64,000 nt of DNA from an uncultured Gemmatimonadales bacterium (GTDB lineage: Bacteria > Gemmatimonadota > Gemmatimonadetes > Longimicrobiales > RSA9). Numbering within the stretch: position 1 is the stretch's first letter; each line of letters begins with the position of its first letter. A program made the position numbers and the translations under genes. Under the pieces are notes generated by a model. It was given only the letters and a program-made list of their open reading frames with translations, ran no database searches and was not told the DNA's origin. Where the stretch lies: assembly GCA_963741945.1 (NCBI GenBank), contig CAVUKA010000001.1:1056001-1120000 (forward strand), written 5' to 3'. Shown piece after piece: positions 12,709 to 48,291 of the stretch.

Positions 12709-12856
12709 CGTCGCCTCGCTGCTGGAAGTGGCCCCCGGGATATGGTTCGGCAATCCCATGATGCTACGGCGACGGCCGGTCCGGCAACCTCATCCGGCGG
12801 CGTGGCACCCGGCTTGCTCCTCTTTCCCGGCAGGCGGCACCAGAACAGGAGGAACG

Positions 12857-14072: not shown

Positions 14073-14075
14073 CCG

Positions 14076-15098
14076 TCAGGTGGGAGTCACCACGCTCCGG
14101 ATGGATGCCCCGCTGCGCAGGAAGTCGAACGCGTCGTCGATCTCGTCCAGGGTGAAGCGGCGGTTCACCAGTTCGGTGACCCTGACACGGCCCTGGCGCA
14201 CGAGATCGATGACGCGCGGGTAGTCCACCGGCCGGCACCCCAGCGATCCCACGATCTCGAGCTCCCGGAACATGACCCGGCCGGCGTTGAGCTCCATGGC
14301 TTTCGGGCTGTAGCCCACGAAGACCACGCGCCCGCCGGTCTTCACCGCGTCCACGGCCAGCGCCTGCGTGTCGGGGCGACCCACGGCCTCGAACGCCACG
14401 TCGGCGCCGCCATCCGTGAGCGCGCGGAGCGCCTTGTCCGGGCGCTCCACGCTGTTCGGGTTCAGCGTGGCCTCCGCGCCCAGGCGCTCGGCCCACGCCA
14501 GCTTCTCGGGCGACACGTCCACGCCCACGACGCGGGCGCCCACCACGGCGGCCATCTGCACGACGTTCAGTCCGACCCCGCCACACCCCACCACCACCAC
14601 CCGGTCACCCGGCCGGACGCGGCCGCGGTTCATCACCGCGTGGAACGGGGTGGTGAGGGCGTCGGCGATGATGGAGCCCTCCACGAGCGGGATCTCGTCC
14701 GGGAGTCGGAACACGTCCCGTGCGGGGACGGCGACGTACTCGGCGTACCCTCCGTCGATGTTGTTGCCCAGCATGATCCCGTTCCGGCAGATGTTCTCGC
14801 GGCCCGTCCGGCATGCATCGCAGTGGCCGCACGACAGCACCGCCGGGAGGAGCACGTGATCGCCCTCCAGCAGCCGCCCCGTCGGGTCGGGGCTGGCCAG
14901 CGTGCCCGCGATCTCGTGGCCGAGCACCATCGGCGGATTCTTGAAGGTGGGCGTGCCGTGGTCGAGGTAGTGGAGGTCGGTGTGGCACACCCCGCAGGCC
15001 GCCACCTTCACGAGCACCTCGCCGGCGCCCGGCTCCGGCACGGGGATGTCCTCGATGGTGAGCGGGCGGTTGGCGCCATGGAAGAGAGCGGCCTTCAT
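14076..15098 (-). CDS. had: Zn-dependent dehydrogenase, likely 6-hydroxycyclohex-1-ene-1-carbonyl-CoA dehydrogenase
   Basis: CGVCHTDLHY, GHE, PAVLSCGHCDACRTGRENIC, ADALTTPF, GSLGCRPVDYP; last gene of bcr operon. Confidence 0.82.
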   Translation of the reverse strand: MKAALFHGANRPLTIEDIPVPEPGAGEVLVKVAACGVCHTDLHYLDHGTPTFKNPPMVLGHEIAGTLASPDPTGRLLEGDHVLLPAVLSCGHCDACRTGRENICRNGIMLGNNIDGGYAEYVAVPARDVFRLPDEIPLVEGSIIADALTTPFHAVMNRGRVRPGDRVVVVGCGGVGLNVVQMAAVVGARVVGVDVSPEKLAWAERLGAEATLNPNSVERPDKALRALTDGGADVAFEAVGRPDTQALAVDAVKTGGRVVFVGYSPKAMELNAGRVMFRELEIVGSLGCRPVDYPRVIDLVRQGRVRVTELVNRRFTLDEIDDAFDFLRSGASIRSVVTPT

Positions 15099-15361
15099 CG
15101 GGGCATCCTCGTGTAGACAACGCGAAAGAGGGAGAGGGCGAGCGTGCACCCGGCGCACTCGTGCGCCAGGTCATCGTCCTCCAGGGGCTCGAGCAGCACC
15201 TCCCGACCCACCGAGCGGTAGAGCGCCGCCATCTCCCCAAGACGGGGCGGGGCGCCGATGAAGCGTCGCGTCCAGCCGGCCCGCGCCAGGACCTCGTCGC
15301 GCTCCCGGACGCGCGCGCTGGCGGCCGGCCCGATGTCGAGCGCGGGCACCGGCGCGCTCAC
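15095..15361 (-). CDS. Small hypothetical CxxC protein inside the bcr operon (88 aa)
   Basis: GTGA and ATGA overlaps at both ends; GWTRRF…PRL.E…LY…CAGC…FRVVYTR. Confidence 0.7.
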   Translation of the reverse strand: MSAPVPALDIGPAASARVRERDEVLARAGWTRRFIGAPPRLGEMAALYRSVGREVLLEPLEDDDLAHECAGCTLALSLFRVVYTRMPR

Positions 15362-16179
15362 GCGGCCGCGGCCTCGGCGTCCTCGGCTTCGAGCTTCTCC
15401 AGCCGGCGCCGTGCGAGGATCGCGGCGCCGATTGCGCCGGTGTACTGGACCAGCGGCTCGGGCGGCACGTTGACGCCCTCCGCCAGGTGCTCGCGCATGA
15501 CGCGCACCATGGTGGGAAAGCGCATGATCCCGCCCACCAGCGTGAACTCGGGCTCCATCTGCACGCGCTTCATGAGCCGCACGCTCTTCTCGATGAGCGA
15601 CTCCATGGCGCCCAGCATGATCTCGCCGGGCTGGCTCCCGTTGCTCACGTGATTGATCACCTCCGACTCGGCGAACACCGCGCAAACTCCGCTGATGGGC
15701 ACCGACGCCTGCGCGCCCTGGACCAGCATCCCGATCTCCTCGAGGCCATAGCCGAGATAGCGGGCCGTCTTCTCCAGGAACGCGCCCGTGCCCGCGGCGC
15801 ACTTGTCGTTCAGACGGAACGAGCGGACCTTCCCCGCGTCATCGACGCGCATCGCCTTCATCGTCTGCCCGCCAATGTCCAGCACCGTGCGGGTCGACGG
15901 AAAGAACCAGCGCGTGCCCCACGACTGCGCCGTCAGGTCGGTGGCCTGGACGTCCCGGAACGCCACCTGGTTGCGGCCGTAGCCGGTGGTGGCGGTGTAG
16001 ACCACGTCCGCGGCCGTCACGCCCGCCTCGGCCAGCGCGGAATCCAGCGCCGCGCGCGCCGCCGCTTCCAGGCGATATCCGGTCGGCACCATGCTCCGGG
16101 CCAGCAGCTGGCCGGCCTCGTCCAGGATCGCGGCCTTCGTGTACGTCGAGCCGACGTCCACTCCCACCGTGCAGGTCAT
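15358..16179 (-). CDS. bcrD: Benzoyl-CoA reductase ATPase/activase subunit, BcrD-like
   Basis: ASKHA motifs [40 protein letters not shown]. Confidence 0.78.
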
Positions 16180-17042
16180 GCCACCTCCCGCGCTGTGGCG
16201 CAGCCCCGGCCCGCATCGCCGTCCGCGGCCGCACCGGTGAGATCCCCCGCCGGGATGAGCGCTCCCTCCGCCCGCTCGAGCGCGAACAGGGCCGCGCCCA
16301 GAGCGCCGATGAAGTGGGACTCGGCCCCCACGTTCATCTCCGTGCCGAGCAGCTCGTTCAGCACGTGCACCATGGCCGGGTTCTTCGTCACCCCGCCCGT
16401 GAAGGTCACTTCCTCCTCCACGCCCACCCGCTTGAGGAGACCGAACGAGCGCTTGGCGATGGACTGATGCACGCCCAGCAGGATGTCCTCGAGCTTCCGG
16501 CCGCGCGCCAGCCACGACAGCACTTCCGACTCCGCGAATACGGTGCACGTGGTGCTGATCGGCACCGGCCGCCGGCCCCGGAGCGCCGTGGGCCCGAGGT
16601 CCGCCAGGTCCAGCTCCAGCGCCGCCGCCGCCGACTGGAGGAAGCGGCCGGTGCCCGCCGAGCACTTGTCGTTCATGCAGAAGTCCAGCACCTGGCCGCC
16701 GGCCTGCACCCGGATCGCCTTGGTGTCCTGGCCACCCATGTCCAGCACGGTCCGCGTGCCGGGGAACATCTCCGCCGCCCCGCGGGCGTGGCACACGATC
16801 TCCGTCACCTGCGTGTCGCCGAACTCCACCTTGTAGCGGCCGTACCCCGTGCCGATGACGAAGTCCACGTCGCGCCGCGCGAGCCCGGCCTCGGCCAGCG
16901 CCAGCGCGAACGCGTTCTCCGCGGCCTCCACCACGTTTGCGCCCGTGTCGATGAGGCTGCGCCCGACGATGCGACGGTCGCCGTCCACCACCACGGCCTT
17001 GGTCTGGGTCGAACCGACATCCACTCCGCCCGCGTGTCTCAT
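16176..17042 (-). CDS. bcrA: Benzoyl-CoA reductase ATPase/activase subunit, short BcrA/BzdQ-like
   Basis: [51 protein letters not shown]. Confidence 0.78.
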
Positions 17043-18370
17043 GCGACCTCCTCCCTTGCGGCGGCACCGCTGCCGGCGATCGCGCCGTTCATCCGCAGCT
17101 TGCGACTCTCCAGCCCCTCGAAGAACGCGTCGATGCGGTTCTTCAGCTGCGCTTCCGAGACCACGCGCTTGTCCATCATGTCGCTCTCGATGTAGAGGGC
17201 CAGGACATCGCGCTCGGCCAGGAGCACCCGCCGGCTGTCGGCCAGGCTCGTCGAGACCGTGCGGCAGCTCTTCACGGGGTGGTAGACCACGCCGTCCGCG
17301 CCGTAGCGGTCCACCGCTTCCAGGAGCAGCCGGTCCTGGAAGAGCATGGCGTCGGTGGCCCGGCGCACGCTGCGCAGGACTCCTTCGGCCAGGCTCACCA
17401 GCGGGCGCGACAGGTCATACTCGAAATCCAGGTCCAGGCCGCCGGAGGCGAACCACAGGTAGGTGGAGCTCACGAATGCGCCGCCCCACTCGCTGAACAT
17501 TGCGTGGAAGCGCGAGAAGATCGGATAGCAGGGGACGCCCACGAAGATCAGGCGGTGCCGCTCGGGCGTCTCACCCAGGGCCCCGCGGCCCTCGGCCAGG
17601 CGCAGCTCCAGCTCCTCGGCCAGGTCGCGGAAGTAGTCCGCGCCCTCCTGCGTGCCGCGCAGCGCGTTCGCCACACCCAGGTACATGGTGCCCTCGAGCA
17701 CCGCGTCGAACGCGGCGGGGGCGCGGGCGTTCAGCGCCAGCACGCGGCGGTAGTGCCGGCCCATCTCGTTGGCGTGGCCCAGCACCTCGCGAAAGCGGTC
17801 GATGTCGAAGCGCCTGCCCGTGAGCGACTCCAGCACCTGGATGAGCTCCCGCAGCTGGTTCTCCACGTACGAGAGGTCCGCGGCCGAGCCGACGCCCGTG
17901 GCGCTGTCCAGGACCGAGCGCGACTGCGGCACGTCCACCGTGAAGACCGGGACGTCGTACATCCGCTCCCAGATCTCGGCCCATTTGAGGTAGGTGTTGC
18001 ACGCGTTCGTCAGCACCGCGATGGACGGTGGCGGGATCATTCCGCGCGGGTGCTCGCCGTTGCGGCGCTGGAGCGCATAGTCGGCCTTCACGTAGCCGCA
18101 CACGTCCGGGGAGAAGCCTTCGTCCTCGGCCTGGCTCAGGTACCCGTCCGAGACCTTCTTCACCGCCGTCTGGAGCGAGTTGATCTCGGGGAAGACCGTG
18201 TGCAGGCCGAACGTGCGCAGGATCTCCGTGAGACTCCCCATGACGAAGACATACGCGGCCTGCTCCCCGGCCGAGTGGGCGTGCGTGAGCTCCTCATACC
18301 ACCGGTCGAACAGCTGCCTGCCGTGCCGGAAGGCGCGTCCGTGGATGAGCTCCGAAGTCACTGGATTCAT
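17039..18370 (-). CDS. bcrB: Benzoyl-CoA reductase subunit B (2-hydroxyacyl-CoA dehydratase family)
   Basis: [35 protein letters not shown]…KNRIDAFF resemble Thauera BcrB. Confidence 0.85.
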
Positions 18371-18378
18371 GGGCCGCC

Positions 18379-19572
18379 TCATTCGAACAGCAGGTTCTCG
18401 ACGAAGGTCTCGAGCTGGATCTGCAGGTGATCGTACGCCGTCATGTTCTCCTCGAACTCCGTCACGAAGTACGGGATCTTCTCCCGGTCCAGCGCCTGTG
18501 AGTACGCCACCTGCTCGTCCAGGCCGGGCTCGCACATCTTGGCCGCGGCCACGATCGCCGCCTCCGCCGAGGCCGCGCGGATGCGGCGAAGCAGCATCTG
18601 CTCCTTCGGCTTCCGGAGGTCGTGCTGGACCGGGCTGTACGACGATCGCTCCAGGTACGCCTCCGCCAGCCTGCCCACGGGATCCCCCGCCAGATCCACG
18701 TCCTCGGTGATCCAGCGCAGGCCGATCAGGAGGTCGTCATCCACCACGTAGACGAACTGCGCGATGGAGCGGAGCAGGTCGAGCGGCGGCTGCTCGCAGA
18801 AGCCGCCCTCGAACACCACGCGCATGCGGTCCTGCCGGCGGGCGTCACGCTCCCGGATGCGGGGAATGAGCGCGCGCAGGAGGTGATTGTGCTCCTCGCG
18901 CGTGACCAGCCCCGCCAGCGCCACCAGCGCGTACGCCTCGTCCACCGGCAACCGCCACGGCTCCTCCCGCTTGATGGTGTAGAGCTCCCGCAGCAGACGA
19001 CGATTCTCATTGAACACTGCGATGGCATCGCGGATCTCGTCGTCGCCCACGGTGCGGCCGACCACCGCTTCGATCTCGACCAGCACGCGTCGGTACTCCG
19101 CGGTCAGGAACTCGGCCGAGAAGCGGGAGTTGGGGTTCTGCGGGAAGTACAGGATCTGCGCGGGCGTGCTCACGTTCCGCTCCCAGATCCCGGCCAGGTT
19201 GCGAGCCACGTCGCAGATCGGGTGGGTGACGAACAGATCCGGCACCAGCGTCCCGTTCATGGCCAGCTCGAGCGTGGTCCGCGGAATGGAGCAGATGGCG
19301 GAGCCGAAGCGAGAATCGGCTTCCCGGCGATCCACCTGGCCGCCGCGGATCTTCACCGGGAGCATCCCCGCCGCGTGGGCCAGCTCTTCGGGGAAGTAGA
19401 CCTGGAAATGGCCCAGCACCTTGCCGCCACCCTCCCGCCACTTCCGCACGGTTGGGTACTCGACGTCCTCCACCACCTCGCGGCAGCGGGCCAGCACGTG
19501 GTCGAGCGGGTCCGAGAGATCGATGTCCAGCAACCGCTCGGGGGGTGGGATCTCGCGCCTGGGTGTCGCCAT
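18379..19572 (-). CDS. bcrC: Benzoyl-CoA reductase subunit C
   Basis: ARC, HAAGMLP, ICSIPR, ICDVARNL, NENR, EPW, EEHN, FCEQPPL, VDDD resemble Thauera BcrC. Confidence 0.88.
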   Translation of the reverse strand: MATPRREIPPPERLLDIDLSDPLDHVLARCREVVEDVEYPTVRKWREGGGKVLGHFQVYFPEELAHAAGMLPVKIRGGQVDRREADSRFGSAICSIPRTTLELAMNGTLVPDLFVTHPICDVARNLAGIWERNVSTPAQILYFPQNPNSRFSAEFLTAEYRRVLVEIEAVVGRTVGDDEIRDAIAVFNENRRLLRELYTIKREEPWRLPVDEAYALVALAGLVTREEHNHLLRALIPRIRERDARRQDRMRVVFEGGFCEQPPLDLLRSIAQFVYVVDDDLLIGLRWITEDVDLAGDPVGRLAEAYLERSSYSPVQHDLRKPKEQMLLRRIRAASAEAAIVAAAKMCEPGLDEQVAYSQALDREKIPYFVTEFEENMTAYDHLQIQLETFVENLLFE

Positions 19573-19573
19573 G

Positions 19574-20341
19574 CTATGCGTCGCTCCAGACCGGCGCGCG
19601 CTTCTCCATGAACGCCGCCAGTCCCTCGTGAGGATCGTGCAGGGCCATCAGCTCGTCGAGGTACAGCGCGTCCGCACCCGCCAGCGCCGCCGACAGCGGG
19701 CGGTCCAGCCCCTCGAGCACGGCGCGCTTGGCCAGCGCCAGCACCGGCCGACTGAGCCCGGCGAGCGGCGCCACGTACTCGCTCACGGCCTCGCCGAACG
19801 CGTCCGCCGGGAGCACGGCCGTGACCAGACCCATCACCTGCGCCTCCTCAGCCAGGATGGTCCGGCCGGTCAGCACCAGGTCCAGCGCCCGCTGCACCCC
19901 CACCCGGCGGGGGAGGAGCGCGGCCGCCGCCGGGGGAAAGACGCCGAGGCGGATCTCCGGCTGGCCAAGCTTGGCGCCGGAACGCGCCAGGACCACGTCG
20001 CAGGCCAGCGCCAGCTCGAGGCCGCCCCCCAGCGCGGCGCCGTTCAGCGCCGCCACGACAGGGAGGTCCACCGCCAGCAGCGCACGGATGGCGCGGGAGA
20101 ACGACTCGATCATCCCCCCCACGCGCTCGGTGGTGTGGTCTGCCACGTCCACCCCGGCGCAGAACGCGCTGCCCTCGCCCGTGAGCACCACTGCGCGTGT
20201 CGCCGGATCCGCATTTGCGACCCCCACTGCCCCGGCCAGCTCGTCCAGCATCTCCGTGGTCAGGACGTTCAGCGGAGGACGGTTCAGGACCACGCGGGCG
20301 ATTGCGGTGCCGAAGTCGACGCGAAGGTGCCGGTACGCCAC
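19574..20341 (-). CDS. dch: Enoyl-CoA hydratase, likely cyclohexa-1,5-diene-1-carbonyl-CoA hydratase
   Basis: GVDVADH, LGGGLEL, GQPEIRLGVFPP, YLDELM…EGL.AF.EKR; position in bcr operon. Confidence 0.82.
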   Translation of the reverse strand: MAYRHLRVDFGTAIARVVLNRPPLNVLTTEMLDELAGAVGVANADPATRAVVLTGEGSAFCAGVDVADHTTERVGGMIESFSRAIRALLAVDLPVVAALNGAALGGGLELALACDVVLARSGAKLGQPEIRLGVFPPAAAALLPRRVGVQRALDLVLTGRTILAEEAQVMGLVTAVLPADAFGEAVSEYVAPLAGLSRPVLALAKRAVLEGLDRPLSAALAGADALYLDELMALHDPHEGLAAFMEKRAPVWSDA

Positions 20342-20342
20342 T

Positions 20343-21452
20343 TCACCCTCCCGCCGTGGCTTTCGCGGCATCCCCGGTTTCGACCGTCTCCACGTCGACT
20401 CCGTCGGTCCCCAGCCCGGCCCCGCACGCGCCACAGAACTGGAAATCGGCTGGAATCCCTTCCGCGCCGCACGCCGGACAGTCACGGTTCGGCGCGCCCC
20501 ACAGGAATTCGCTGGAGCCCCCGCTCGCCGCGCGCTCGCGGAGCTCCATGTAGCGCGGCTTCCGCTTCTGAACGAAAGCGCGCATTCCCTCCCACGGCTC
20601 GAGGGAGGAGTAGTGGAGCGCCAGCCAGTCGCCCGCATGGCCCACGGTCTGGCTCCAGCTGAGCTCCTTCCAGAAGTTCACCTGCTGCTTCGTGTAACGC
20701 GTGCACTCCGGGAACTGCTGCAGCAGCACCTGAACCAGCTCGTCCACCGCCTCGTCCAGCTTCTCCAGCGAGATCGCGTAGCCGTCCTCTGCGTTCTGTG
20801 CCCTCGCGATCTGTTCCGGCGACGCCCCGTCGATGAACGCTCCGTCCTTCACCACGCTCGGCACGACCCGGTTCACCAGCCCCCAGTCCAGGCATTGCCG
20901 CGGCGGGATCCGGCCGTTGACCATGAGGATCTCGCGGGCGCGGCGGTCGCCGACCAGGAGCGGAAGCCACTGCGTGGCACCGCCGGCCGCCACGCTCCCG
21001 ACGCGCGTCCCTACCTGGCCGATGTAGGCGTGCTCGGCCATCACGGCGAGGTCGCACGCCATCTGGCTCTCGTTGCCTCCGCCGACGGCCATGCCGTTCA
21101 GGCGCGCGATCGTGGGCTTCCCCAGTTGAACGATGCTTTCGATATACTCCCGGAACAGCCGCATGTATTTCCAGTAGTCTCGCGGCCGTTGCGTGTACTC
21201 GGCCTCGTACTCCTTCACGTCGCCGCCCGTGCAGAACGCCTTCGTCCCCGCGCCCGTGTAGACCACCACCCCCACCCCATCGTCGAACGCCGCGTCATGG
21301 AACGCGGTGGTCAGCTCACGCAGCGCTTCCGTGGAGTACGCGTTGTAGTTGTGGGGACGGTTCAGCGTGACGCGCGCCACCCAGTCGGCCTTCTCGTACC
21401 GGATCTCCCGGAAGTCGTACGACTCGGCGGGACGCGGCTCAAACTTCGGCAT
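20343..21452 (-). CDS. oah: 6-oxocyclohex-1-ene-1-carbonyl-CoA hydrolase (ring-opening) with C-terminal Zn ribbon
   Basis: YNAY, AFCTGGDVKEY, YMRLF, LDEAV…FPEC, WLAL; RBS AAGGAG; C-terminal CPACG…FCGACG. Confidence 0.85.
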   Translation of the reverse strand: MPKFEPRPAESYDFREIRYEKADWVARVTLNRPHNYNAYSTEALRELTTAFHDAAFDDGVGVVVYTGAGTKAFCTGGDVKEYEAEYTQRPRDYWKYMRLFREYIESIVQLGKPTIARLNGMAVGGGNESQMACDLAVMAEHAYIGQVGTRVGSVAAGGATQWLPLLVGDRRAREILMVNGRIPPRQCLDWGLVNRVVPSVVKDGAFIDGASPEQIARAQNAEDGYAISLEKLDEAVDELVQVLLQQFPECTRYTKQQVNFWKELSWSQTVGHAGDWLALHYSSLEPWEGMRAFVQKRKPRYMELRERAASGGSSEFLWGAPNRDCPACGAEGIPADFQFCGACGAGLGTDGVDVETVETGDAAKATAGG

Positions 21453-21503
21453 GCTCGGCTCCTTGTCAGACCATGGCACGACGGCCACCTGGGAAAACGA
21501 AAG

Positions 21504-22370
21504 TCACGAAACGGACGACCGCTCCTCACCCGCCACACCCACGGCGGATCCGGCGGCTTCGAAGCGCGGCTCCACGAACCGGTCGGCCGGCTCCGCCAAC
21601 AGCTCGTGGTAATAGTTGAACAGGCTCAGCGCGCACTCCCCCGCCCAGTCCTCCGGCTGCAACGCCCCGGGGAGGAACGGGTCCTGGAGCGGGAACTCCC
21701 GGTACTCGTGCACCAGCCGGAAGCGCCGGACGTACGCGTCCCGCGGCTCGATCGACCCCGGACCCTCCTCCTTCAGCGCCACGCACGCGTCCAGATGACG
21801 CTCTATGAACGCCTCGTAGCGCGCGTTCAGCCCGGCCAGGTCCCAGCAGCGGCCCACCAGCTCACGGGCGTCGCCAAACCCCAGGTGCGGTCCGCGGAAC
21901 ACCTCCACGTACTCCCTCACTTCCAGATCGTCCGCGATCTCACGCACAGGGCCGACGACATCGTGCGGCGTAATCCACAGCCCGTTCCCCAGCGACCCGA
22001 ACCCGAGCCACTCCAGGCGAACCCGCAGGCGGTCCCGCTGCCCCCGCTGCTCCTCCGGAATCGAATACGCCAGCAGCGTCCACTCCCCATCCCACCCCTC
22101 CGCCCCACGCGGCCGGTAGATCCGCGTCTCCCCTTCCTCCAGCAGCCGTCGGCCCCGACCCGTCAGCGCATAGTAGCTGCGACGACCCTCGCGCTCCGCT
22201 TCCAGCCACCCCTTCCCCACCATCCGCGACAGCACCGTCCGCACGTTCGTCTCGCTCAGCCCCAGCGGCTCCAGCAGCCCGATCAGGCTCCCCACCCACA
22301 CCGGTGATGGCCGGTGCAGCAGGAAATCGCCGAACAGCGTGAACACCAGGTCCTGGGGTCGTGCGGCCAT
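21504..22370 (-). CDS. paaX: PaaX-family transcriptional regulator
   Basis: FTLFGD, RTVLSRM..KGWL, YYALT, RIY, WDGEW, L.WLGFG, WDL, QDPFLP.ALQP.DW.G. Confidence 0.9.
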   Translation of the reverse strand: MAARPQDLVFTLFGDFLLHRPSPVWVGSLIGLLEPLGLSETNVRTVLSRMVGKGWLEAEREGRRSYYALTGRGRRLLEEGETRIYRPRGAEGWDGEWTLLAYSIPEEQRGQRDRLRVRLEWLGFGSLGNGLWITPHDVVGPVREIADDLEVREYVEVFRGPHLGFGDARELVGRCWDLAGLNARYEAFIERHLDACVALKEEGPGSIEPRDAYVRRFRLVHEYREFPLQDPFLPGALQPEDWAGECALSLFNYYHELLAEPADRFVEPRFEAAGSAVGVAGEERSSVS

Positions 22371-22440
22371 CTCTTGTCACAAATGGTTAACGATCGTAGT
22401 CTTGCTGCAATACATTGCCGGCCCGACGCCGGTGTCAAGG
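22371..22440 (-). promoter_or_regulatory. Putative promoter/operator region between divergent paaX and maoC
   Basis: AT-rich patch; minus-strand TTGACA at 22433-22438 (no clean -10); palindromes TTGTCACAA (22374-22382), ACGATCGT (22390-22397), GCAATACATTGC (22407-22418). Confidence 0.5.
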
Positions 22441-22506
22441 GTCTTCATGCGGAGGCCCCGGGAACATCGGCGGACCGAGCGCCCTCGCGGATCCGGGAGG
22501 CGGACG

Positions 22507-22977
22507 ATGACGGAGGAATCCCTGACGTTCGATGACTTCGAGGTGGGGCGCACCTACCGGACGGAGAGCCGTGTGGTGACGCAGGCGGACGTGGAGGCGT
22601 TCGCGGCGGTGTCGGGGGATGCGAACCCGCTGCACCTGGACGAGGCGTACGCGGCGCAGACGGTGTTCGGCGGCCGGGTGGCGCACGGTGCGCTGGGGCT
22701 GGCGGTCGCGACGGGGCTGCTGAACCGGCGTGGGCTGACGCGGGGGACGTTGATCGCCTTTCTGGGGCTGACCTGGGACTTCGTCGCCCCGCTGGTGCCG
22801 GAGTCGGAGGTGCACGTGGCGCTGGAGGTATCATCGAAGCGGGTTTCGCGCCGCGCGGACCGGGGCGTGGTGGCCTTCTCGGCGGAGCTGCGGTCGGGCT
22901 CTGAAGTGATCCAGGCCGGGGAGCTCCGGTTCCTGGTGCGGCGGCGCGGAGCGGCCGGTGGCGTGGCGGGGACGTAG
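22507..22977 (+). CDS. MaoC-family (R)-specific enoyl-CoA hydratase/dehydratase
   Basis: FDDFEVG, FAAVSGDANPLHLD, FGGRVAHG; RBS GGAGG. Confidence 0.88.
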   Translation: MTEESLTFDDFEVGRTYRTESRVVTQADVEAFAAVSGDANPLHLDEAYAAQTVFGGRVAHGALGLAVATGLLNRRGLTRGTLIAFLGLTWDFVAPLVPESEVHVALEVSSKRVSRRADRGVVAFSAELRSGSEVIQAGELRFLVRRRGAAGGVAGT

Positions 22978-23029
22978 ACGTCCCTGCTCTCGCGCGGGCG
23001 GGCGCGCGGGTGCCCGCGGGCGAAACCCC

Positions 23030-23120
23030 TACGCGTCAAGGGGGGAAACTCCCGATACATGGCGCAGGTAAATCAGTGAATCCCCGATTGTACGGCTGAG
23101 CGTGCGGGGTAGCTTTTCAG
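23030..23120 (+). promoter_or_regulatory. Putative promoter/operator upstream of iorA fusion
   Basis: AT-richer intergenic stretch with CGATACATGG (23053-23062) and AATC-N11-GATT. Confidence 0.35.
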
Positions 23121-23164
23121 GTGCAGGGCGGGGACACCCGGGCAGCAACTCCGGAGCGAGCCGG

Positions 23165-26100
23165 ATGATGGATAAAGGGGCCGCAGCGCGGCCAGAGAGG
23201 CAGGAGCGCGCGTCGGCGGTGCGTGAAGCCGGCGGGGCATCCAGGGGGCGGCGCCTCCTGCTTTCGGGGAACCAGGCCATCGCCCGTGGGGCGTGGGAGG
23301 CGGGGGTGCGAGTGGGCGCAGGCTACCCCGGCACGCCGAGCACGGAGATCCTGGAAGCGCTGTCGCACCTGGATGGCGTCGACTGCGAGTGGTCGCCGAA
23401 CGAGAAGGTGGCGCTGGAAGTGGCCGTGGGCGCGTCGCTGGGGGGCGCGCGGGCGCTGGCCACGATGAAGCACGTGGGCGTGAACGTCGCCGCCGACCCG
23501 CTCTTCTCGGCCGCGTACATGGGTGTGAACGGCGGGCTCGTGGTCGTGAGTGCCGACGACCCCGGCATGCACTCGTCGCAGAACGAGCAGGACAACCGTC
23601 TATTCGCCCGCCACGCCCGGCTTCCGCTGCTGGAGCCGTCCACGCCGGCGGACGCGCGTCGGTTCACCACGGCGGCGTTCGCGGTCTCGGAGCGCTACGA
23701 CACGCCGGTGCTGCTGCGGACCACGACTCGCCTGAGTCACGGTACCGGCCCGGTCGAGGCGGGTGAGCGGGAAGCAGTGGGGCTGCGGGCATACCACAAG
23801 GACCGCCAGAAGAACGTGGTCCTCCCGGCGCACGGCCGCGTCCGCCACCGCTGGATCGAGGAGGAGCGGATGCCGGCGCTCGCCGCGGAAGCGGAGCGGT
23901 GGGCGGAAGCGGAGCCGGGCGACGGCGACGTCGCCTTCATCACCGCGGGCATTCCCTACCTGTACGTCCGGGAGGCCTTCCCGGCGGCCCCGGTGCTCCG
24001 CCTCGGGATGACGTATCCGCTCCCGGAGATCGCGGTCCGGCGGTTCGCGGAGGAGCACGCGGGGAAGCGGCTCTACGTGGTGGAGGAGCTGGAGCCGTTC
24101 CTGGAGGAGCAGATCCGGGCGCTCGGGCTGGCGCTGGAAGCGCGCACCTGGCCCCGGTACGGCGAGCTGACCGTGCGGCTCCTGCGTCGCGCGGCAGGGG
24201 CTCCCGAGGAGGGCACCGCGGAGGAGACGGCCGCGAACGCGAAGGGTGCGGTCGGTGATGCGCCCCCGGTGCTGCCGTCGCGACCGCCGGCGCTGTGCCC
24301 CGGGTGCGCCCATCGTGGCGTGTTCCACGCCCTGGGACGCATGGACGCCATCGTGAGCGGCGACATCGGCTGCTATACGCTGGGTGCGCTCGCGCCGCTG
24401 GACGCCATGGACGCGTGCATGAACATGGGGGCCTCCATCGGCATGGCGCATGGCATGGAGAAGGTGCTGCCGCCGGATGAAGGGAAGCGTGTGGTGAGCG
24501 TGATCGGCGACTCCACGTTCTACCATTCGGGCGTGACGGGACTGATGGACGTGGTCTACAACCGGGGCAAGGGGACGGTGGTGGTGCTGGACAACCGGAC
24601 CACGGCCATGACGGGGCATCAGGACCACCCGGGCACGGGCCACACGCTCGGCAACGCCGAAGCGCCGCGCATCGACATCGGCGGGATCGCGCGGGCGGTG
24701 GGCGTGGACGACGTGCGCAGCGTGGACCCGTACGATCTCCTGGGCGCGTGGCGCACGCTGGACGACGCGACCCGCACGCAGGCGCCCTCGGTGGTGGTGG
24801 CCGGGAAGCCGTGCGTGCTGAAGGAGAAGGTCTCGTTCGGCGATCCGGTGTTCCTGGACGCGGACCGGTGCACCGAGTGCTTCGCGTGCACGCGGCTGGG
24901 GTGCCCGGCCATCGAGGAGAGCGATGGGCGTCTCGCGGTGAACGACCTGCTCTGCAACGGCTGCACGCTGTGCCAGCAGGTCTGCGCCGACTGCAACGCG
25001 GGGATCGACGTCTCGCTCATGCTCGAGCTGGTGGACCAGGGGCGGCTCTCGGACGCGCTCGAGCTGGTGCTGCGCTCGAACCCGCTGCCCGCCGTCTCCG
25101 CGCGCGTCTGTCCGCACCCCTGCGACCACGACGTGAACGCCCTCGGGTTCCCGCAGGCGGCTACCTATGCGGCCCGGCACCCGTCGCTCGTGGAGCGCTT
25201 CCCCGACGGCGCCAGGAAGATTTCGGTGCGTGCGGTGGAGCAGTTCCTGGGCGACTGGGCCATCGAGAACTACCCGGCCGACGCGCTTTCCCCCGCGGAG
25301 GAGATGGGCCGCTCCGTGGCGGTGGTCGGATCCGGGCCGGCCGGCCTGTCGGCGGCGTGGCACCTCCGGCGCAAGGGGTGGCGCGTCACCGTGTTCGAAG
25401 CCGACGAAGCCCCGGGCGGCATGCTGCGGAGCGGGATCCCCCCGTTCCGGCTGGCGCGGGAAGTACTGGACGCAGAGCTGGGCCGGTTCACCGCTATCGG
25501 CATCGAGTTCCGCACGGCGGCCAGGATCGGTCGGGACATCACGGTGGCAGAGCTGTCCGAGGAGCATGACGCCGTCATCATCGCAGTGGGCCGGCACGCG
25601 CCGCGGACCATCCCGCTGGAAGGGGCCGAGGCGTACGGCTCGTCCGTGCTGGGCGGCCTGGAATTCCTGCGGCGTTTCAACGCAGGCGAGGCGGTGCCGC
25701 TGGGTCGCCGTGTCACGGTGATCGGAGGGGGGAACACGGCCATCGACTGCGCGCGCGCCGCGCGCCGGCTCGGTGCCACCGTGGACGTGGTGTACCGGCG
25801 GACAGAAGCCGAGATGCCGGCCATCCCCGACGAGGTGGAGGAAGCGCGGGAGGAAGGCGTGACGTTCCGGTTCCAGAGGAGCCCCGTGCGGGCGCTGGGA
25901 GAGGGCGGTCGCCTGACGTCGCTGGAAACCATCGCCATGGCGCAGGGCGACCCGGACGAGAGCGGTCGGCGGCGCCCGGACCCGGTGGCGGAGAGCGAGG
26001 AGGTCGAGCCCTGCGACGCGGTGATCCTGGCCGTGGGCGAGGACACCGACCTGGCGTTGCTGGCAGGGAGCGGCATCCGGGCGGGCGACCGGATCGACGT

Positions 26101-26254
26101 CAACTTCGCCGGTGCCACATCGGTGCCCGGCGTGTTCGCGTGCGGTGATGCGGCGTTCGGCCACGGCACGGTGACGCAGGCGGTGGCCACGGGCCGCCGC
26201 GCGGCCGAGCTGGCGAGCAACCCGTTGAAGAAAGGGGCGACCCGTGAGCGATAA
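23165..26254 (+). CDS. iorA: Indolepyruvate:ferredoxin oxidoreductase alpha subunit fused to a GltD/BzdV-like FAD/NADPH oxidoreductase
   Basis: GNQAIARG, YPGTPSTE, NEKVA, MKHVG.NVAAD, SSQNEQD, RPP.LCPGC.H, GDIGCY, GDSTF.HSG, two ferredoxin Cys motifs; then NPLPA..RVCP, GSGPAG, GGGNTAID, YRR. Confidence 0.9.
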   Translation: MMDKGAAARPERQERASAVREAGGASRGRRLLLSGNQAIARGAWEAGVRVGAGYPGTPSTEILEALSHLDGVDCEWSPNEKVALEVAVGASLGGARALATMKHVGVNVAADPLFSAAYMGVNGGLVVVSADDPGMHSSQNEQDNRLFARHARLPLLEPSTPADARRFTTAAFAVSERYDTPVLLRTTTRLSHGTGPVEAGEREAVGLRAYHKDRQKNVVLPAHGRVRHRWIEEERMPALAAEAERWAEAEPGDGDVAFITAGIPYLYVREAFPAAPVLRLGMTYPLPEIAVRRFAEEHAGKRLYVVEELEPFLEEQIRALGLALEARTWPRYGELTVRLLRRAAGAPEEGTAEETAANAKGAVGDAPPVLPSRPPALCPGCAHRGVFHALGRMDAIVSGDIGCYTLGALAPLDAMDACMNMGASIGMAHGMEKVLPPDEGKRVVSVIGDSTFYHSGVTGLMDVVYNRGKGTVVVLDNRTTAMTGHQDHPGTGHTLGNAEAPRIDIGGIARAVGVDDVRSVDPYDLLGAWRTLDDATRTQAPSVVVAGKPCVLKEKVSFGDPVFLDADRCTECFACTRLGCPAIEESDGRLAVNDLLCNGCTLCQQVCADCNAGIDVSLMLELVDQGRLSDALELVLRSNPLPAVSARVCPHPCDHDVNALGFPQAATYAARHPSLVERFPDGARKISVRAVEQFLGDWAIENYPADALSPAEEMGRSVAVVGSGPAGLSAAWHLRRKGWRVTVFEADEAPGGMLRSGIPPFRLAREVLDAELGRFTAIGIEFRTAARIGRDITVAELSEEHDAVIIAVGRHAPRTIPLEGAEAYGSSVLGGLEFLRRFNAGEAVPLGRRVTVIGGGNTAIDCARAARRLGATVDVVYRRTEAEMPAIPDEVEEAREEGVTFRFQRSPVRALGEGGRLTSLETIAMAQGDPDESGRRRPDPVAESEEVEPCDAVILAVGEDTDLALLAGSGIRAGDRIDVNFAGATSVPGVFACGDAAFGHGTVTQAVATGRRAAELASNPLKKGATRER

Positions 26255-26981
26255 GACGAGGGAGTCGGGATCCGGGGACCCGCAGGTCGCGGCCACGGCC
26301 GTGGAAGAAGCCGGCGCGGACGCCGCAGCTCGCTCCGAGCGGGTGTCCGACCGCAGCGGCGGCCTCCCCCCCACCGGCCACGGCGATGTGATGAACATCG
26401 TGCTTGCGGGCGTTGGCGGTCAGGGCTCCGTCCTCGCCACCCGGGTGCTGGCCACGGCGGCGGCGATCGCGGGGCACCAGGTCGTGACCTCGGAAGTGCA
26501 CGGCATGTCGCAGCGCGGCGGAACGGTTCTGACCACGGTGCGCTTCGGCGACTCGGTTCTGTCCTCCTCCATCCCGGAGGGCGAAGCCGACTTCCTGGTG
26601 GCCTTCGAGCGCCTCGAGGCCGCGCGGCACCTGTCCCTGGTGGAACCCGGCGGGATCGTGCTGGTGAACGACCAGCGCATCGCGCCGAGCATCGAATCGC
26701 TGAAGACCGCCGGCTACCCCCGCGACCTCGAGCCGAGTGCGGAGGCGCGCGGCATCACGCTGCTGACCTTCCCGGCGCTGGCGCTGGCCAGGGAGCTGGG
26801 AAACGAGAAGCTGTCCAGCACGATCATGCTGGGCGCGCTGTCGAACTACCTGTTCATTGCCCGGGAGCAGTGGCTGGAAGCGATCCGGCGGACGGTCCCG
26901 CCGAGGACGGTGGAAGCGAACGAAGCCGCGTTCGACACGGGCGCCGAGTGGATGGTGGGCCCCGCGGCGTTCAGCTTCTGA
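26244..26981 (+). CDS. iorB: Indolepyruvate oxidoreductase beta subunit
   Basis: AGVGGQG, SEVHGMSQRGG.V, ELGN, MLGAL; start may be at MNIVLAG. Confidence 0.92.
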   Translation: MSDKTRESGSGDPQVAATAVEEAGADAAARSERVSDRSGGLPPTGHGDVMNIVLAGVGGQGSVLATRVLATAAAIAGHQVVTSEVHGMSQRGGTVLTTVRFGDSVLSSSIPEGEADFLVAFERLEAARHLSLVEPGGIVLVNDQRIAPSIESLKTAGYPRDLEPSAEARGITLLTFPALALARELGNEKLSSTIMLGALSNYLFIAREQWLEAIRRTVPPRTVEANEAAFDTGAEWMVGPAAFSF

Positions 26982-28077
26982 CCCTGGAGATCGGCGCCTC
27001 GTAGTCCCTCGCCCTCTCCATCCCGGCCAGCACCCGCGCGGCCCCTTCGGCCAGCGCCCGCAGCTCGTCTTCGCCGGGGTAGACCCGGACGTCCGCGATC
27101 CAGGTCAGCGCATCCGCGAGCCCGCCCGTCAGCGCCCGGCTGCGCGCCATTCCACCAGTGAGGAGAACGGCGTCGACGCGGCCGCCGAGCGCGGCGGCCA
27201 TGGCGCCGATCTCCTTGCGGATCTGGTAGGACATGGCGAGGAGAACGACGCGAGCATGATCGTCGCCGGCGGCGATGCGCGCTTCCACCTCCCTGAGGTC
27301 CCGGGTGCCGAGATAGGACACGAGACCGCCCTCGCGGAAGAGCCGGCGGTCCGCCTCGGCCATGGTCCAATCCTCCTCCAGGGCGCGCTCCATGAGGCGC
27401 ATCACCGGCACGCTGCCGGCCCGCTCGGTGGAAAACGGCCCTTCCTCCCGGGGGTTGTTCACGTCGACCATGCGCCCGCCCCGGTGTGCCGACACGCTCA
27501 CGCCGCTCCCGAGATGGGCCACCACCAGGCGCAGCTCGTCGTACGAACGACCCACCTCGGCGGCGTAGCGCTTCGCCACGGCCTTGGTGTTGAGCGCGTG
27601 GGAGAGGCAGACGCGATCCAGCCCCGCCAGTCCCGAAAGCCGGGCCACGTCATCCCACTCGTCCACGCTCACGGGGTCCACGATGAATGCCGGGCACCCG
27701 GCCTCGTCGGCCAGTCGGCGAGCCAGGAACGCGCCCAGATTGGACGCGTGCTCGCCCCGCCCCGCCGCGCGCAGGTCCTCCAACATGGCATCGGTCACGC
27801 GGTACGTCCCGCTGGCCAGCGGGCGCAGCAGTCCACCCCGCCCCACCACCGCGTCCATGTCGCCAGGTTCCACGCCGTGCCGTGACAGGGCCCCGCGCAC
27901 CGCATCCAGGCGCATGTCCTGCTGCTCCAGGATCGGCCGCCCACGGAACCCCGCCAGCACCGCGTCATCGTGGGTGGCCGCGTGCTCGAACACCACCGCG
28001 TCGCCGGAGAAGACCGCCAGCTTCGTGCTGGTCGACCCGGGATTGAGAGCCAGAATCAAGAACTCCTCCGCTGCCAT
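26971..28077 (-). CDS. buk: Butyrate (branched/short-chain acyl) kinase
   Basis: NPGSTSTK, GRGGLL, HASNLG, IVDPVSVDE, HALN.KAV, AHLGSG, EGPFS.ERAG, YPGEDE. Confidence 0.93.
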   Translation of the reverse strand: MAAEEFLILALNPGSTSTKLAVFSGDAVVFEHAATHDDAVLAGFRGRPILEQQDMRLDAVRGALSRHGVEPGDMDAVVGRGGLLRPLASGTYRVTDAMLEDLRAAGRGEHASNLGAFLARRLADEAGCPAFIVDPVSVDEWDDVARLSGLAGLDRVCLSHALNTKAVAKRYAAEVGRSYDELRLVVAHLGSGVSVSAHRGGRMVDVNNPREEGPFSTERAGSVPVMRLMERALEEDWTMAEADRRLFREGGLVSYLGTRDLREVEARIAAGDDHARVVLLAMSYQIRKEIGAMAAALGGRVDAVLLTGGMARSRALTGGLADALTWIADVRVYPGEDELRALAEGAARVLAGMERARDYEAPISRVRS

Positions 28078-28108
28078 GACGCGTCCCCGCCTCCCTCGCA
28101 TGCCCGCC

Positions 28109-29038
28109 TCATCCCGCCCGTCCGACCAGTGCACCCAGGGCGATGGAGTGCAGCTTGTCTTCCGCGCTTTCAACGCGCGACGGGATCAGGATCGGCACCG
28201 CGGCGCCCGTGACCACGTGGGCCGTGATCGAACCGCCGAAGTACTTGACCCCTTTGCCCAGGATGTTCCCCGCATCGATCCCGGGGGTGACCATGATGTC
28301 GGCGGCCCCCGCCACCGGACCCGTGATCCCCTTCGCCCGGGCTGCCGAAGGGAGCAGCGCGTTGTCGAGGGCCAGCGGCCCGGCGACGTCGGCGTTCGGC
28401 AGCGCCCGCGCAGCCCACTCGGCGGTGTCGCGGGCGAGCACGGTGGAGGGGACGGCATCGGTGACCACTTCGGTGGCGCTGAGGAGAGCCACGCGCGGCC
28501 GCTCGTAGCCGAGGGCGCGGAACACCGCCACGGCGTTGGCCACGATCTCCCGCAGCGCCGCCGCATCCGGGGCGGGCGTGATCCCGCCGTCCGTGACCCC
28601 CACCAGCCGCACTGAGCCGGAGAGCGCGTCCTCGTAGAGGAGAACATCGGAGAGCAGTCGGCCCGTCCGCAGCCCGCGCTCCCGACGGAGCGCCGCCTTC
28701 AGGAGCTGGTCCGTCCGCAGCGCACCTTTGAGCAGGATGCCCACCTCTCGCGTCACGGCCAGCTCCACCGCCGCGGCCGCGGCCTCCTCCGGAGTTGCAG
28801 CCCTCACCCAGCGGGCGTGGTCCAGCCCGCGGATCGACCCGGCCTCGATGACCGCGCGGATCCGATCCGCATCGCCCACCAGGACGGGCGAGGCGATCCC
28901 CTCCGTCGCGGCCGCCCCGACCGCGGCCAGCGCCGACGCGCTGTCAGCGGCCACTACCGCCACGGAAACGGGCCGGGATTCCCTGGCCCGTGCCCGGAGC
29001 TCAGCGAAGGAACGGATCGGTGCTGTGAGCGTCGGCAT
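28109..29038 (-). CDS. ptb: Phosphate butyryl/acyltransferase
   Basis: LLKG, TDGG, LSATE, PST, GPLALDNA, KGI..PVAG.ADI, GNILGK, SR.ES. Confidence 0.9.
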   Translation of the reverse strand: MPTLTAPIRSFAELRARARESRPVSVAVVAADSASALAAVGAAATEGIASPVLVGDADRIRAVIEAGSIRGLDHARWVRAATPEEAAAAAVELAVTREVGILLKGALRTDQLLKAALRRERGLRTGRLLSDVLLYEDALSGSVRLVGVTDGGITPAPDAAALREIVANAVAVFRALGYERPRVALLSATEVVTDAVPSTVLARDTAEWAARALPNADVAGPLALDNALLPSAARAKGITGPVAGAADIMVTPGIDAGNILGKGVKYFGGSITAHVVTGAAVPILIPSRVESAEDKLHSIALGALVGRAG

Positions 29039-29205
29039 GCCGGCAATATGCCCGCGCGGGGAATCGGGTGCCAGTCAGGCCCGGTCTACCGGCGGGTAAG
29101 GGATTTCCCCGCCCCGTCGCGGTGAATCCTCCTGATTGCCGCTCGCACGCACGGGAGCTTAGGCTGCCAGCACGGCCAGAACCGAACCAAGCGAGGGTAC
29201 CTCTT

Positions 29206-48209: not shown

Positions 48210-48223
48210 CGACACCTACCGAT

Positions 48224-48256: not shown

Positions 48257-48291
48257 CTCCTCACTGCTGTGCGCACGACTCCAGGAGATGC

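Follow-up and report, generated by a model that had tools for sequence, protein, structure and literature searches.

A probable MBR-type ring-reduction operon with a PaaX-family regulator gene, and its neighbours, in a Gemmatimonadota genome

The locus described here lies between positions 14076 and 29038 of a 64,000-nucleotide stretch of DNA (the window; C1:1056001-1120000, G+C content 70%) from a 4.09-Mb genome (G000) that is assembled in 8 contigs and is 96.7% complete, and whose nearest named relatives are Gemmatimonadota/Longimicrobiales, as the initial annotation had supposed. It carries genes for an enzyme of the benzoyl-CoA reductase type together with a PaaX-family regulator gene and, next to these, genes for a 2-oxoacid oxidoreductase of the IOR type and for the acyl-phosphate enzymes Ptb and Buk. 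This leads to the question whether all these genes form one dearomatisation island that feeds itself with aryl-CoA without a ligase, as that annotation had proposed, or whether two units stand side by side. We favor the second answer, namely that the minus-strand genes paaX-oah-dch-bcrCBAD-orf88-had and the divergent maoC would constitute an MBR-type ring-reduction operon and that the IOR/Ptb-Buk genes would be a separate adjacent module, and from the sequences we give this reading a probability of about 0.6. Gene calls were made from Pfam and NCBIfam matches with inspection of the start codons, and by these the gene content and order proved to be as annotated.

The reductase and the operon around it

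The reductase subunits are encoded on the minus strand by bcrC (18379-19572; gamma subunit, BcrC/MbdN type, 397 amino acids (aa)), bcrB (17039-18382; beta subunit, BcrB/MbdO type, about 447 aa), bcrA (16176-17042; ATPase alpha subunit, BcrA/MbdQ type, 288 aa) and bcrD (15358-16179; ATPase delta subunit, BcrD/MbdP type, 273 aa), the first two proteins having an HGD-D domain and the last two a BcrAD_BadFG domain. When the Protein Data Bank (PDB) was searched, BcrC matched 9g87_B (MbdN) with 514 bits over residues 21-397, at an identity of roughly 60% that was estimated by eye from the alignment and is not a tool figure, and BcrB matched 9g87_A (MbdO) with 449 bits compared to 121 bits for HadB (3o3m_A) and 78 bits for BzdO (8s02_A). 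BcrA matched 9gai_D (MbdQ) with 370.8 bits and BcrD matched 9gai_C (MbdP) with 285.6 bits. The entries 9g87, 9gai, 9gal and 9gba are titled 3-methylbenzoyl-CoA reductase. The Mbd matches are near full length, and against 2-hydroxyisocaproyl-CoA dehydratase the catalytic subunits reached 121-124 bits and against BzdNO 78-102 bits, so that each subunit is nearest to its MbdN, MbdO, MbdQ or MbdP counterpart and not to BzdNO or the dehydratases. One operon thus holds two HGD-D catalytic subunits and two different BcrAD/BadFG ATPases. The class I enzymes comprise BCR, MBR and BZD types, of which BCR and MBR are described as permanent heterotetramers (PMC11971306). Given these recognized types and the one-to-one matches to the Mbd chains, the reductase of the window is assigned by homology to the MBR-type class I (ATP-dependent) benzoyl-CoA reductases, a known kind of enzyme, and in this the class I dearomatisation operon of the initial annotation is upheld. 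The best NCBIfam models for all subunits were those of the benzoyl-CoA pathway, each scoring below its equivalog cut-off; for TIGR02259-02263 the scores and cut-offs were 273.2 and 421.15 for bcrC (TIGR02263), 204 and 487 for bcrB, 203 and 578 for bcrA, and 139 and 313 for bcrD. A probable explanation of this shortfall is that the enzyme is of the MBR type, being closest to the Mbd chains.

Relatives of BcrC at 62-77% identity were found in at least 549 species-level genomes, whose hosts include Gemmatimonadota, Chloroflexota, Acidobacteriota, Binatota, KSB1 and Bacteroidota, and many metagenome proteins are more than 70% identical to it. A set of 80 related loci was compared using the window proteins in tblastn (E<=1e-10, coverage >=50%); many of these loci are incomplete and the counts are therefore lower bounds. 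All four bcr genes were present in 63 of the 80 loci and the complete operon of the window (paaX, oah, dch, bcrCBAD, orf88 and had) in 14, while window-type oah (>=55% identity) was found in 35, orf88 in 30, had (>=50% identity) in 24 and maoC in 14. The recurrence of the full operon in 14 loci and of its parts in many incomplete ones shows that the arrangement is beyond chance. The loci are of two types. Type 2 has the order had-oah-dch-bcrCBAD with canonical enzymes, as seen in 9 loci where both upstream genes are visible, and type 1, to which the window belongs, has a reductase of the same clade with divergent paralogues and with paaX, maoC and orf88. In a quick BcrC tree the window fell in a starred clade of 33 rows, 30 of which are type 1. 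Type 1 is a distinct version of the pathway that is widespread in Gemmatimonadota and Chloroflexota, and it is the commoner form in Gemmatimonadota; its cluster includes neither a ligase gene nor a ferredoxin gene. The genes that lie past maoC vary from locus to locus and include those for MgtE, a citrate transporter, DUF1015, LigD and a beta-eliminating lyase.

The operon in the window is closely packed. The oah/dch junction is a GTGA overlap, dch and bcrC are separated by 1 nucleotide (nt), the bcrC/bcrB, bcrB/bcrA, bcrA/bcrD and orf88/had junctions are ATGA overlaps and the bcrD/orf88 junction is GTGA. The gap between paaX and oah is 51 nt and shows no coupling, and the earlier description of the operon as mostly translationally coupled is therefore correct for oah through had and not for paaX/oah. 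A consensus scan of positions 13500-29500 gave 0 promoter-like and 4 terminator-like matches compared to 3.6 expected, which is uninformative at 70% G+C, and a search of sequencing runs with window positions 14076-23999 returned no RNA run and one DNA run matching 0.60 of its words.

The enzymes encoded around the reductase are divergent members of their families. The Dch-like enoyl-CoA hydratase (19574-20341, minus strand, 255 aa, ECH_1 domain) has as its best NCBIfam model TIGR03189, a dienoyl-CoA hydratase, at 181.4 bits against a cut-off of 292.5, and the Had-like zinc alcohol dehydrogenase (14076-15098, minus strand, 340 aa, Pfam ADH_N and ADH_zinc_N) reached 259.7 bits on TIGR03201 against 338.65. 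The Oah-like crotonase of the MenB/BadI/Oah group (20343-21452, minus strand, 369 aa, ECH_1 domain) scored 202.8 bits on TIGR03200, over profile positions 20-221 only, against 464.45; it is presumed from its homology to be the ring-opening hydrolase. It ends in a zinc-ribbon-like CxxC-N-CGxCG motif with weak DZR/DUF7577 matches at residues 335-359, and this tail is present in all 35 type-1 Oah homologues and in none of 3 canonical Oah proteins of relatives. Canonical Had and Oah are found in the relatives L059, L078 and L040, where Had scored 442-492 bits (cut-off 339) and Oah 558-638 bits (cut-off 464); BcrC of these same loci scored only 257-260 bits on the Thauera-type model. The maoC gene (about 22507-22977, plus strand, divergent from paaX) encodes a MaoC-type (R)-specific enoyl-CoA hydratase with a MaoC_dehydratas domain and adjoins paaX in 14 of the 27 related loci with room for it. 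In Chloroflexota the order is bcrCBAD-paaX-oah-dch-maoC-SDR-thiolase(-thioesterase)-had, where SDR is a short-chain dehydrogenase/reductase gene; SDR and thiolase genes follow maoC inside the operon in L036, L052 and L071, and a thioesterase gene is there too in L036 and L052. Because of this maoC-SDR-thiolase order inside Chloroflexota operons, MaoC probably belongs to the lower beta-oxidation that follows ring opening.

The sequence of reactions that these homologies suggest is as follows. The BcrA/BcrD ATPases would spend ATP to drive low-potential electrons into BcrB/BcrC, and these would reduce benzoyl-CoA or a ring-substituted analogue to a cyclic dienoyl-CoA. The Dch-like hydratase would then add water to the dienoyl-CoA, the Had-like zinc dehydrogenase would oxidize the hydrated product, the Oah-like crotonase would open the ring, and MaoC would act at the start of beta-oxidation. 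What is new in the type-1 loci is the wiring, that is the PaaX-family regulator, the zinc-ribbon Oah paralogue and orf88, and not the reductase itself.

The PaaX-family regulator and orf88

The first gene of the operon, paaX (21504-22370, minus strand), encodes a 288-aa protein in which the Pfam domains PaaX, PaaX_M and PaaX_C scored 84.4, 96.5 and 78.7 bits, all over their cut-offs, which bears out the earlier claim that a PaaX-family regulator stands here in place of BzdR, BadR, BadM or MbdR. On the equivalog model TIGR02277 it scored 251.4 bits against a cut-off of 264.55. It is the single PaaX match in the genome, and 38 of the 80 loci have a PaaX homologue next to their reductase genes. 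Between paaX and maoC a TTGACA-like box is closely followed by an operator-like palindrome (22376-22411, no strand) with the consensus ATTACA-N8-ACGATCGT-N8-TGTAAT. This palindrome was recognized by its conservation across loci, being kept in 11 aligned paaX-maoC intergenic regions in which the core C-G..C-G-T columns are invariant, and among 562 core matches in the whole genome it is the only site with 3 or fewer mismatches. We infer that it is the putative site of an autoregulated PaaX-like repressor, which would repress its own promoter and maoC there until an aryl-CoA released the repression. Since the palindrome occurs only once in the genome, iorA and ptb have no such site of their own.

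The regulator resembles the PaaX repressor of the aerobic phenylacetate (paa) pathway in having all three PaaX domains and, in this locus, a palindromic site at a divergent promoter. It differs in that it adjoins a reductase operon and not paa genes, in that its score is under the equivalog cut-off, and in that PaaK is missing from the genome and PaaA, PaaC and PaaD have only weak counterparts there, encoded in one cluster; the operator sequence too presumably differs from the E. coli PaaX box. That cluster (G000:C5:522700-525300, L106) consists of four genes with PaaA-, PaaC- and PaaD-like products that score below the cut-offs, and PaaK, PaaE and PaaZ are not encoded nearby. The regulators listed as sensors of aryl-CoA are BzdR/BoxR/GenR, MbdR and PaaX/PaaR, the ligand of PaaX/PaaR being phenylacetyl-CoA (PMC4424350). 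No report that ties PaaX to a benzoyl-CoA reductase operon was found in the literature searched, where the matches concerned the paa pathway.

The small gene orf88 (15095-15361, minus strand, 88 codons) lies between bcrD and had, a position that we take to be that of fdx in the Thauera cluster. Pfam and NCBIfam searches with its product gave no match, nothing below E 0.49 was found among PDB sequences, its AF2 model (pLDDT 81.7) had no Foldseek match to PDB folds at E<=0.001, and in the protein atlas it fell only into unnamed clusters with scores of 0.84-0.87. In an alignment of 25 sequences C69 and C72, which form a CxxC motif, are invariant, and a profile search returned 935 representative clusters at E<=0.001, those listed being all 66-132 aa long. 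In a sample of 201 genomes of the phylum, orf88 was present in 34. BcrC at >=60% identity is encoded in 32 of the 34 as well, and in 30 of those 32 orf88 lies 3-3.5 kb downstream of BcrC on the same strand. Thus, orf88 is a real conserved gene that belongs to no known family. A conventional ferredoxin was ruled out because the protein has two cysteines only. When a complex of BcrA, BcrD and orf88 was predicted, the score was 0.21 and the mark 0.32, which speaks neither for nor against a complex, with alignments of 28 and 24 rows of 30 per subunit from which rows with in-frame stops and some others had been dropped.

The adjacent IOR/Ptb-Buk module and the rival readings

On the other side of maoC, at a spacing of 188 nt, begins the iorA-gltD fusion gene (23165-26254, plus strand, 1029 aa). 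The first 612 or so residues of its product are IorA, with a score of 647.4 bits on TIGR03336 IOR_alpha over residues 52-629 (cut-off 650.9), and residues 613-1042 match PRK12771 and gltA-type models and form a GltD/NfnB-like iron-sulfur flavoprotein part with an FAD/NAD(P)-binding domain. It is followed by iorB (26391-26981, plus strand, about 196 aa, POR domain), for which an upstream GTG at 26244 is also a possible start and which scored 202.5 against 237 and 151.6 against 205.8 on the IOR beta models. Convergent with iorB, and sharing 11 nt with its 3' end, is buk (26971-28077, minus strand, 368 aa), whose product is a butyrate-kinase-family acyl kinase above its cut-off (TIGR02707, 440.7 against 289.1), and behind it ptb (28109-29038, minus strand, 309 aa, PTA_PTB domain) encodes a Ptb-type phosphate acyltransferase that is below its own (TIGR02706, 223.9 against 410.5). 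As judged from these homologies, the most likely function of the module is an NAD(P)+-linked oxidation of aryl- or branched-chain 2-oxoacids, the acyl-CoA product of which would go on to yield ATP by way of the acyl phosphate.

The initial annotation had placed this module, as a 2-oxoacid feeder with an acyl-phosphate branch, inside the island, and this was not supported. The arrangement iorA-gltD/iorB facing buk-ptb is preserved intact in G000, G001, G005, G007 and G018, and in G014 the contig stops after iorB. In G005, whose genome has no BcrC match, the module stands directly beside fabH, whereas in the window fabH and iorA are separated by the 8.9-kb island and an adjoining PRC-barrel gene. 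It would appear that the island was either inserted in the window lineage or lost by deletion in G005, and in both cases the reductase island and the IOR/Ptb-Buk unit are separable; the module would then merely adjoin an inserted reductase island in the genus of the window. Among 31 close relatives (two of them, G016 and G017, are unpublished genomes without either gene) the full-length fusion was found in 6, BcrC in 10 and both in 4 (G000, G001, G007 and G018), and in 3 of these 4 the two are within 10 kb of each other. The fusion is an architecture that recurs: at full length it was present in 5 of the 201 genomes of the phylum sample, and of the best 120 clusters listed from other sources most are about 900-1060 aa long and are full-length fusions, some of them from Bipolaricaulota/Acetothermia. 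No ptb or buk was found in any of the 80 loci, and iorA was beside paaX/maoC in 0 of the 27 loci that have paaX and at least 4.5 kb beyond it. When the regions upstream of iorA were aligned in six genomes no conserved element was seen.

The genome was examined for other sources of aryl-CoA and of electrons. As had been annotated, the island has no ligase or ferredoxin gene, and the genome-wide scans confirmed that AMP-forming ligases, CoA-transferases, free ferredoxins and KorAB are lacking in the window as a whole. There are 13 AMP-binding matches in the genome, none of them in the window, and twelve are AMP-forming ligases, among which there may be an unconventional aryl-CoA ligase; the best score on cyclohexanecarboxylate-CoA ligase was 321 against 792. 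An AMP-ligase-like gene that is 25-54% identical to the ligases of this genome is present in 6 of the 80 loci. The PaaK-like gene at C5:329629-331041 was rejected as a phenylacetate-CoA ligase, because of its score of 96 against 646 and its PEP-CTERM glycosyltransferase neighbours, and the xanthine-dehydrogenase-family gene at 51360-53480 was rejected as a 4-hydroxybenzoyl-CoA reductase with 188.6 against 994.55. No enzyme of PadEFGHI grade was found in the genome, the best scores being 235 for PadI and 129 for PadG against a cut-off of 700 and 36 against 300 for IorB on PadE. With respect to electron carriers, a motif scan of the genome for small ferredoxin-like open reading frames (ORFs) gave only C4:242772-243005, which is of the 7Fe type, and none in the window, and in the 80 loci the same kind of scan gave no small ORF with two CxxCxxCxxxC motifs. 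The electron donor is therefore encoded elsewhere or is unconventional. IorA has the only POR_N match in the window, where there is no other 2-oxoacid:ferredoxin oxidoreductase (OFOR). A KorAB-like enzyme is encoded at C1:1319913-1322881, where genes for an RnfB-like iron-sulfur protein and a PFOR-like protein of 1735 aa adjoin its own, and in L032 a KorAB orthologue, 75% and 70% identical to KorA and KorB of the window genome, lies directly 3' of had. Of a canonical set of ligase, ferredoxin and KorAB elsewhere in the genome, KorAB and one ferredoxin were thus found and the ligase was not.

Several side observations belong to this context. The region of the KorAB-like enzyme as a whole (G000:C1:1312950-1322881, L104), with the PFOR-like protein, the 324-aa RnfB-like polyferredoxin and the KorAB-like OFOR, is a candidate low-potential electron supply. 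A second OFOR (G000:C3:657800-661500, L103) has a 534-aa GltD-like partner with a C-terminal PorD/KorD ferredoxin domain, and because of this GltD-PorD fusion partner NAD(P)-linked OFORs can be said to recur in this genome. The genome has seven molybdopterin enzymes, and the one that was inspected is PhsA-like (470 against 694 bits); it is encoded at G000:C1:1293361-1296275 (L107) with an NrfC/DsrO-like four-cluster subunit and hints at anaerobic respiration of the thiosulfate/polysulfide type. In L042, L073 and L076 a second, distant BCR/HAD-like set lies directly upstream of the MBR-type bcrCBAD, with a bcrC-like gene at 26-27% identity, two ATPase genes at 38-45% and one GltD-like gene, so that GltD-like genes stand upstream of bcrC in these loci. 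A gene of the tryptophanase/tyrosine phenol-lyase (TPL) family is found within 10 kb of the operon, often right after had, in 10 of the 80 loci (L001, L003, L012, L014, L016, L018, L024, L030, L043 and L045); on the NF009709 subfamily model it reaches 695-710 bits, and it stays under the TPL and TnaA equivalog cut-offs. In the window genome itself this gene is at C1:1049636-1051012, about 5 kb before the start of the window and about 19 kb from had. Tryptophanase/TPL and IOR neighbours fit a setting of aromatic amino-acid catabolism.

Some of the data weigh against the favored reading. The best of the twelve ligases scored 233 against 375 on the benzoate-CoA ligase family, PaaK reached at best 66 against 646 in the genome, and a search of the genome, 96.7% complete, for CoA-transferases of families I and III gave none. 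All benzoyl-CoA pathway equivalog cut-offs are missed, and for this reason the true substrate may not be benzoyl-CoA itself. In the phylum sample, IorA (E<=1e-100) is present in 19 of 201 genomes and BcrC (>=60% identity) in 36; 46 genomes pass E<=1e-60 for BcrC, 10 of them with proteins 34-40% identical. Both are present in 10 genomes, and in 6 of these (G000, G089, G092, G134, G171 and G197, from four genera) they are 3.6-8.7 kb apart, while they are 384 kb apart in G083 and on separate contigs in G079, G102 and G039; kin are not independent in these counts, which therefore do not amount to a test. Within the family to which the window belongs, the nearby IOR and reductase genes are arranged in two ways, and 3 Chloroflexota loci have an unfused IorAB downstream of bcrD, joined in L026 by a Leu/Phe/Val-type dehydrogenase. 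These recurrences argue that the adjacency of IOR to the reductase is not purely accidental. Part of the proximity is shared synteny, since in G018 and L065/L066 genes for a TPR protein and an HMGL-like synthase lie between bcrD and the IOR module. A functional link between IOR and the reductase, as feeder, as source of a signal or as electron donor, is possible.

How such a link could work has been weighed as follows. If the island were integrated, IorA-GltD/IorB and/or Ptb-Buk would make the aryl-CoA from Phe-derived 2-oxoacids or phenylglyoxylate, no ligase would be needed and PaaX would sense phenylacetyl-CoA. In line with this are the IOR genes found no more than 10 kb from reductase genes of this clade in 6 of the 10 genomes and in four genera, the IorAB genes downstream of bcrD in Chloroflexota with the amino-acid dehydrogenase of L026, the lack of a canonical ligase or CoA-transferase in the genome, and the tryptophanase/TPL gene that accompanies the operon in 10 of the 80 loci and suggests catabolism of aromatic amino acids; moreover, phenylacetyl-CoA made by IOR has been proposed for anaerobic degraders (PMC5109826) and PaaX/PaaR are listed as sensors of it (PMC4424350). 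However, the module occurs without the reductase in G005 and the reductase without the fusion in most genomes, ptb and buk are in 0 of 80 loci, the genome has a single palindrome, and the best PadG and PadI scores are 129 and 235 against 700. The product of IOR is an arylacetyl-CoA and not an aroyl-CoA, and it is no substrate for a Birch-type reductase. A role as feeder would therefore need an alpha-oxidation step. In addition, GltD sends the electrons to NAD(P)+, which together with Ptb-Buk fits an ATP-yielding drain better than a feeder, and we consider the integrated island unlikely. We are similarly doubtful that the neighbouring 2-oxoacid oxidoreductase is the low-potential electron donor of the reductase and not a carbon feeder. 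Class I reductases need reduced ferredoxin (PMC11971306), the KorAB orthologue comes right after had in L032, IOR co-location is recurrent, the 80 loci lack a small two-motif ORF, and GltD-like genes are upstream of bcrC in L042, L073 and L076. An electron-donating role is also that of KorAB in Thauera and of korA2B2 in the Azoarcus mbd cluster. Nevertheless, IorA is fused to an NAD(P)-linked flavoprotein, which would drain the electrons to about -320 mV, far above the need of the reductase, and IOR is not found in 26 of the 36 reductase-bearing genomes of the phylum sample.

A bolder combination of these ideas would make the type-1 operon of Gemmatimonadota and Chloroflexota a self-contained, ferredoxin- and ligase-independent route for carbon from aromatic amino acids, in which IOR would give both the aryl-CoA substrate, or signal for the PaaX-like repressor, and the low-potential electrons, orf88 would be a new partner for electron entry or for the bridging of clusters in place of the ferredoxin, and the zinc-ribbon Oah and divergent Had would process a ring intermediate other than that of the textbook benzoyl-CoA pathway; this is speculative and we give it little credence. 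Least probable by far is that the HGD-D and ATPase genes encode no ring reductase and are a Fld/Had-type 2-hydroxyacyl-CoA dehydratase with its activator, serving amino-acid fermentation with IOR and Ptb-Buk. The two enzymes belong to the same BCR/HAD radical enzyme family (PMC11971306), some public records label close relatives '2-hydroxyacyl-CoA dehydratase', and IOR and Ptb-Buk are typical fermentation genes. This candidate was rejected because the MbdN and MbdO scores of 514 and 449 bits are about 4 times the 124 and 121 bits for HadB/C, because there are two distinct ATPase subunits, each of which fits MbdQ or MbdP, and because the operon is shared with Dch-, Had- and Oah-type genes that are present in canonical versions in relatives. 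A separable ring-reduction operon beside an IOR/Ptb-Buk module is thus the reading that we retain.

Comparison with known systems and other genes

The closest described system is the mbd cluster of Azoarcus/Aromatoleum sp. CIB (MbdONQP), the operon composition of which has been reported together with the pairing of MbdR and 3-methylbenzoyl-CoA (PMC4424350). Like it, the window operon has four subunit genes whose products each match one Mbd chain strongly, has genes for a hydratase, a dehydrogenase and a hydrolase in one operon with them, and has a repressor for which an aryl-CoA is the expected effector. It differs in having a PaaX-family regulator instead of the TetR-type MbdR, in having no ferredoxin gene and no adjoining ligase gene or ABC transporter operon, and in having orf88 and the zinc-ribbon Oah paralogue; its hosts are Gemmatimonadota and Chloroflexota and not denitrifying Betaproteobacteria. 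In the mbd cluster MbdM is presumably the ferredoxin, and we take korA2B2 to be part of that cluster. The cluster of Thauera aromatica has the order had-oah-dch-bcrCBAD-fdx. The bcrCBAD order and the pathway logic of reductase, Dch, Had and Oah are shared with it, and L040, L059 and L078 even show had-oah-dch-bcrCBAD with canonical Had and Oah, whereas the window proteins miss every equivalog cut-off of that type and paaX leads the window operon.

For the neighbouring module, the comparison is with IorAB, which has been proposed to convert phenylpyruvate to phenylacetyl-CoA in the sulfate reducers Desulfococcus multivorans and Desulfobacula toluolica, and with PadEFGHI, the phenylglyoxylate:NAD+ oxidoreductase (PMC5109826). 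The window shares with the former a two-subunit IOR core, its IorA being just under the cut-off. PadEFGHI joins a 2-oxoacid oxidoreductase with an NAD(P)-binding flavoprotein, which is the same domain logic as in the fusion of the window. Unlike in both, the NAD(P)/FAD GltD-like unit of the window is fused to IorA, and the scores on the Pad models are far under their cut-offs.

To our knowledge, nearly all work on class I benzoyl-CoA reductases has dealt with denitrifying Proteobacteria. Our comparison shows that soil and sediment lineages carry MBR-type enzymes and that their operons have two forms. Metagenome surveys list bcr genes of Chloroflexota, Acidobacteriota, KSB1 and one Gemmatimonadota metagenome-assembled genome as generic markers (PMC11704145). 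The targets that type 1 offers, namely the effector of the PaaX-like protein, the role of orf88 and the range of substrates, bear on the turnover of aromatic carbon in oxygen-poor soils. The data also advise caution, in that neighbouring IOR and Ptb-Buk genes are not to be read as members of the pathway.

A few genes near the operon, or elsewhere in the window, deserve mention. A hemerythrin-domain gene lies near the operon in 13 of the 80 loci (L008, L010, L012, L016, L021, L023, L024, L043, L050, L067, L068, L078 and L079), and its product may sense or scavenge oxygen in the vicinity of an enzyme that is sensitive to it; the window genome gave no homologue with the query used. The PRC-barrel protein encoded between fabH and the island (12476-13777, plus strand) has a weak match to PuhA, the reaction-centre H subunit (98 against 200 bits), and since this ORF and that of fabH overlap, at the 3' end of the latter, one of the two starts is probably later. 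The ORF at 35796-41219 (plus strand) encodes about 1800 aa, among them two Ser/Thr kinase domains and, at the end, a TolB-like beta-propeller. Finally, the gene at 48190-51276 (plus strand), directly 3' of an NADP-glutamate dehydrogenase gene, encodes a protein of about 1000 aa with a weak response-regulator receiver match, DUF5752 and a PPDK_N ATP-grasp-type domain.

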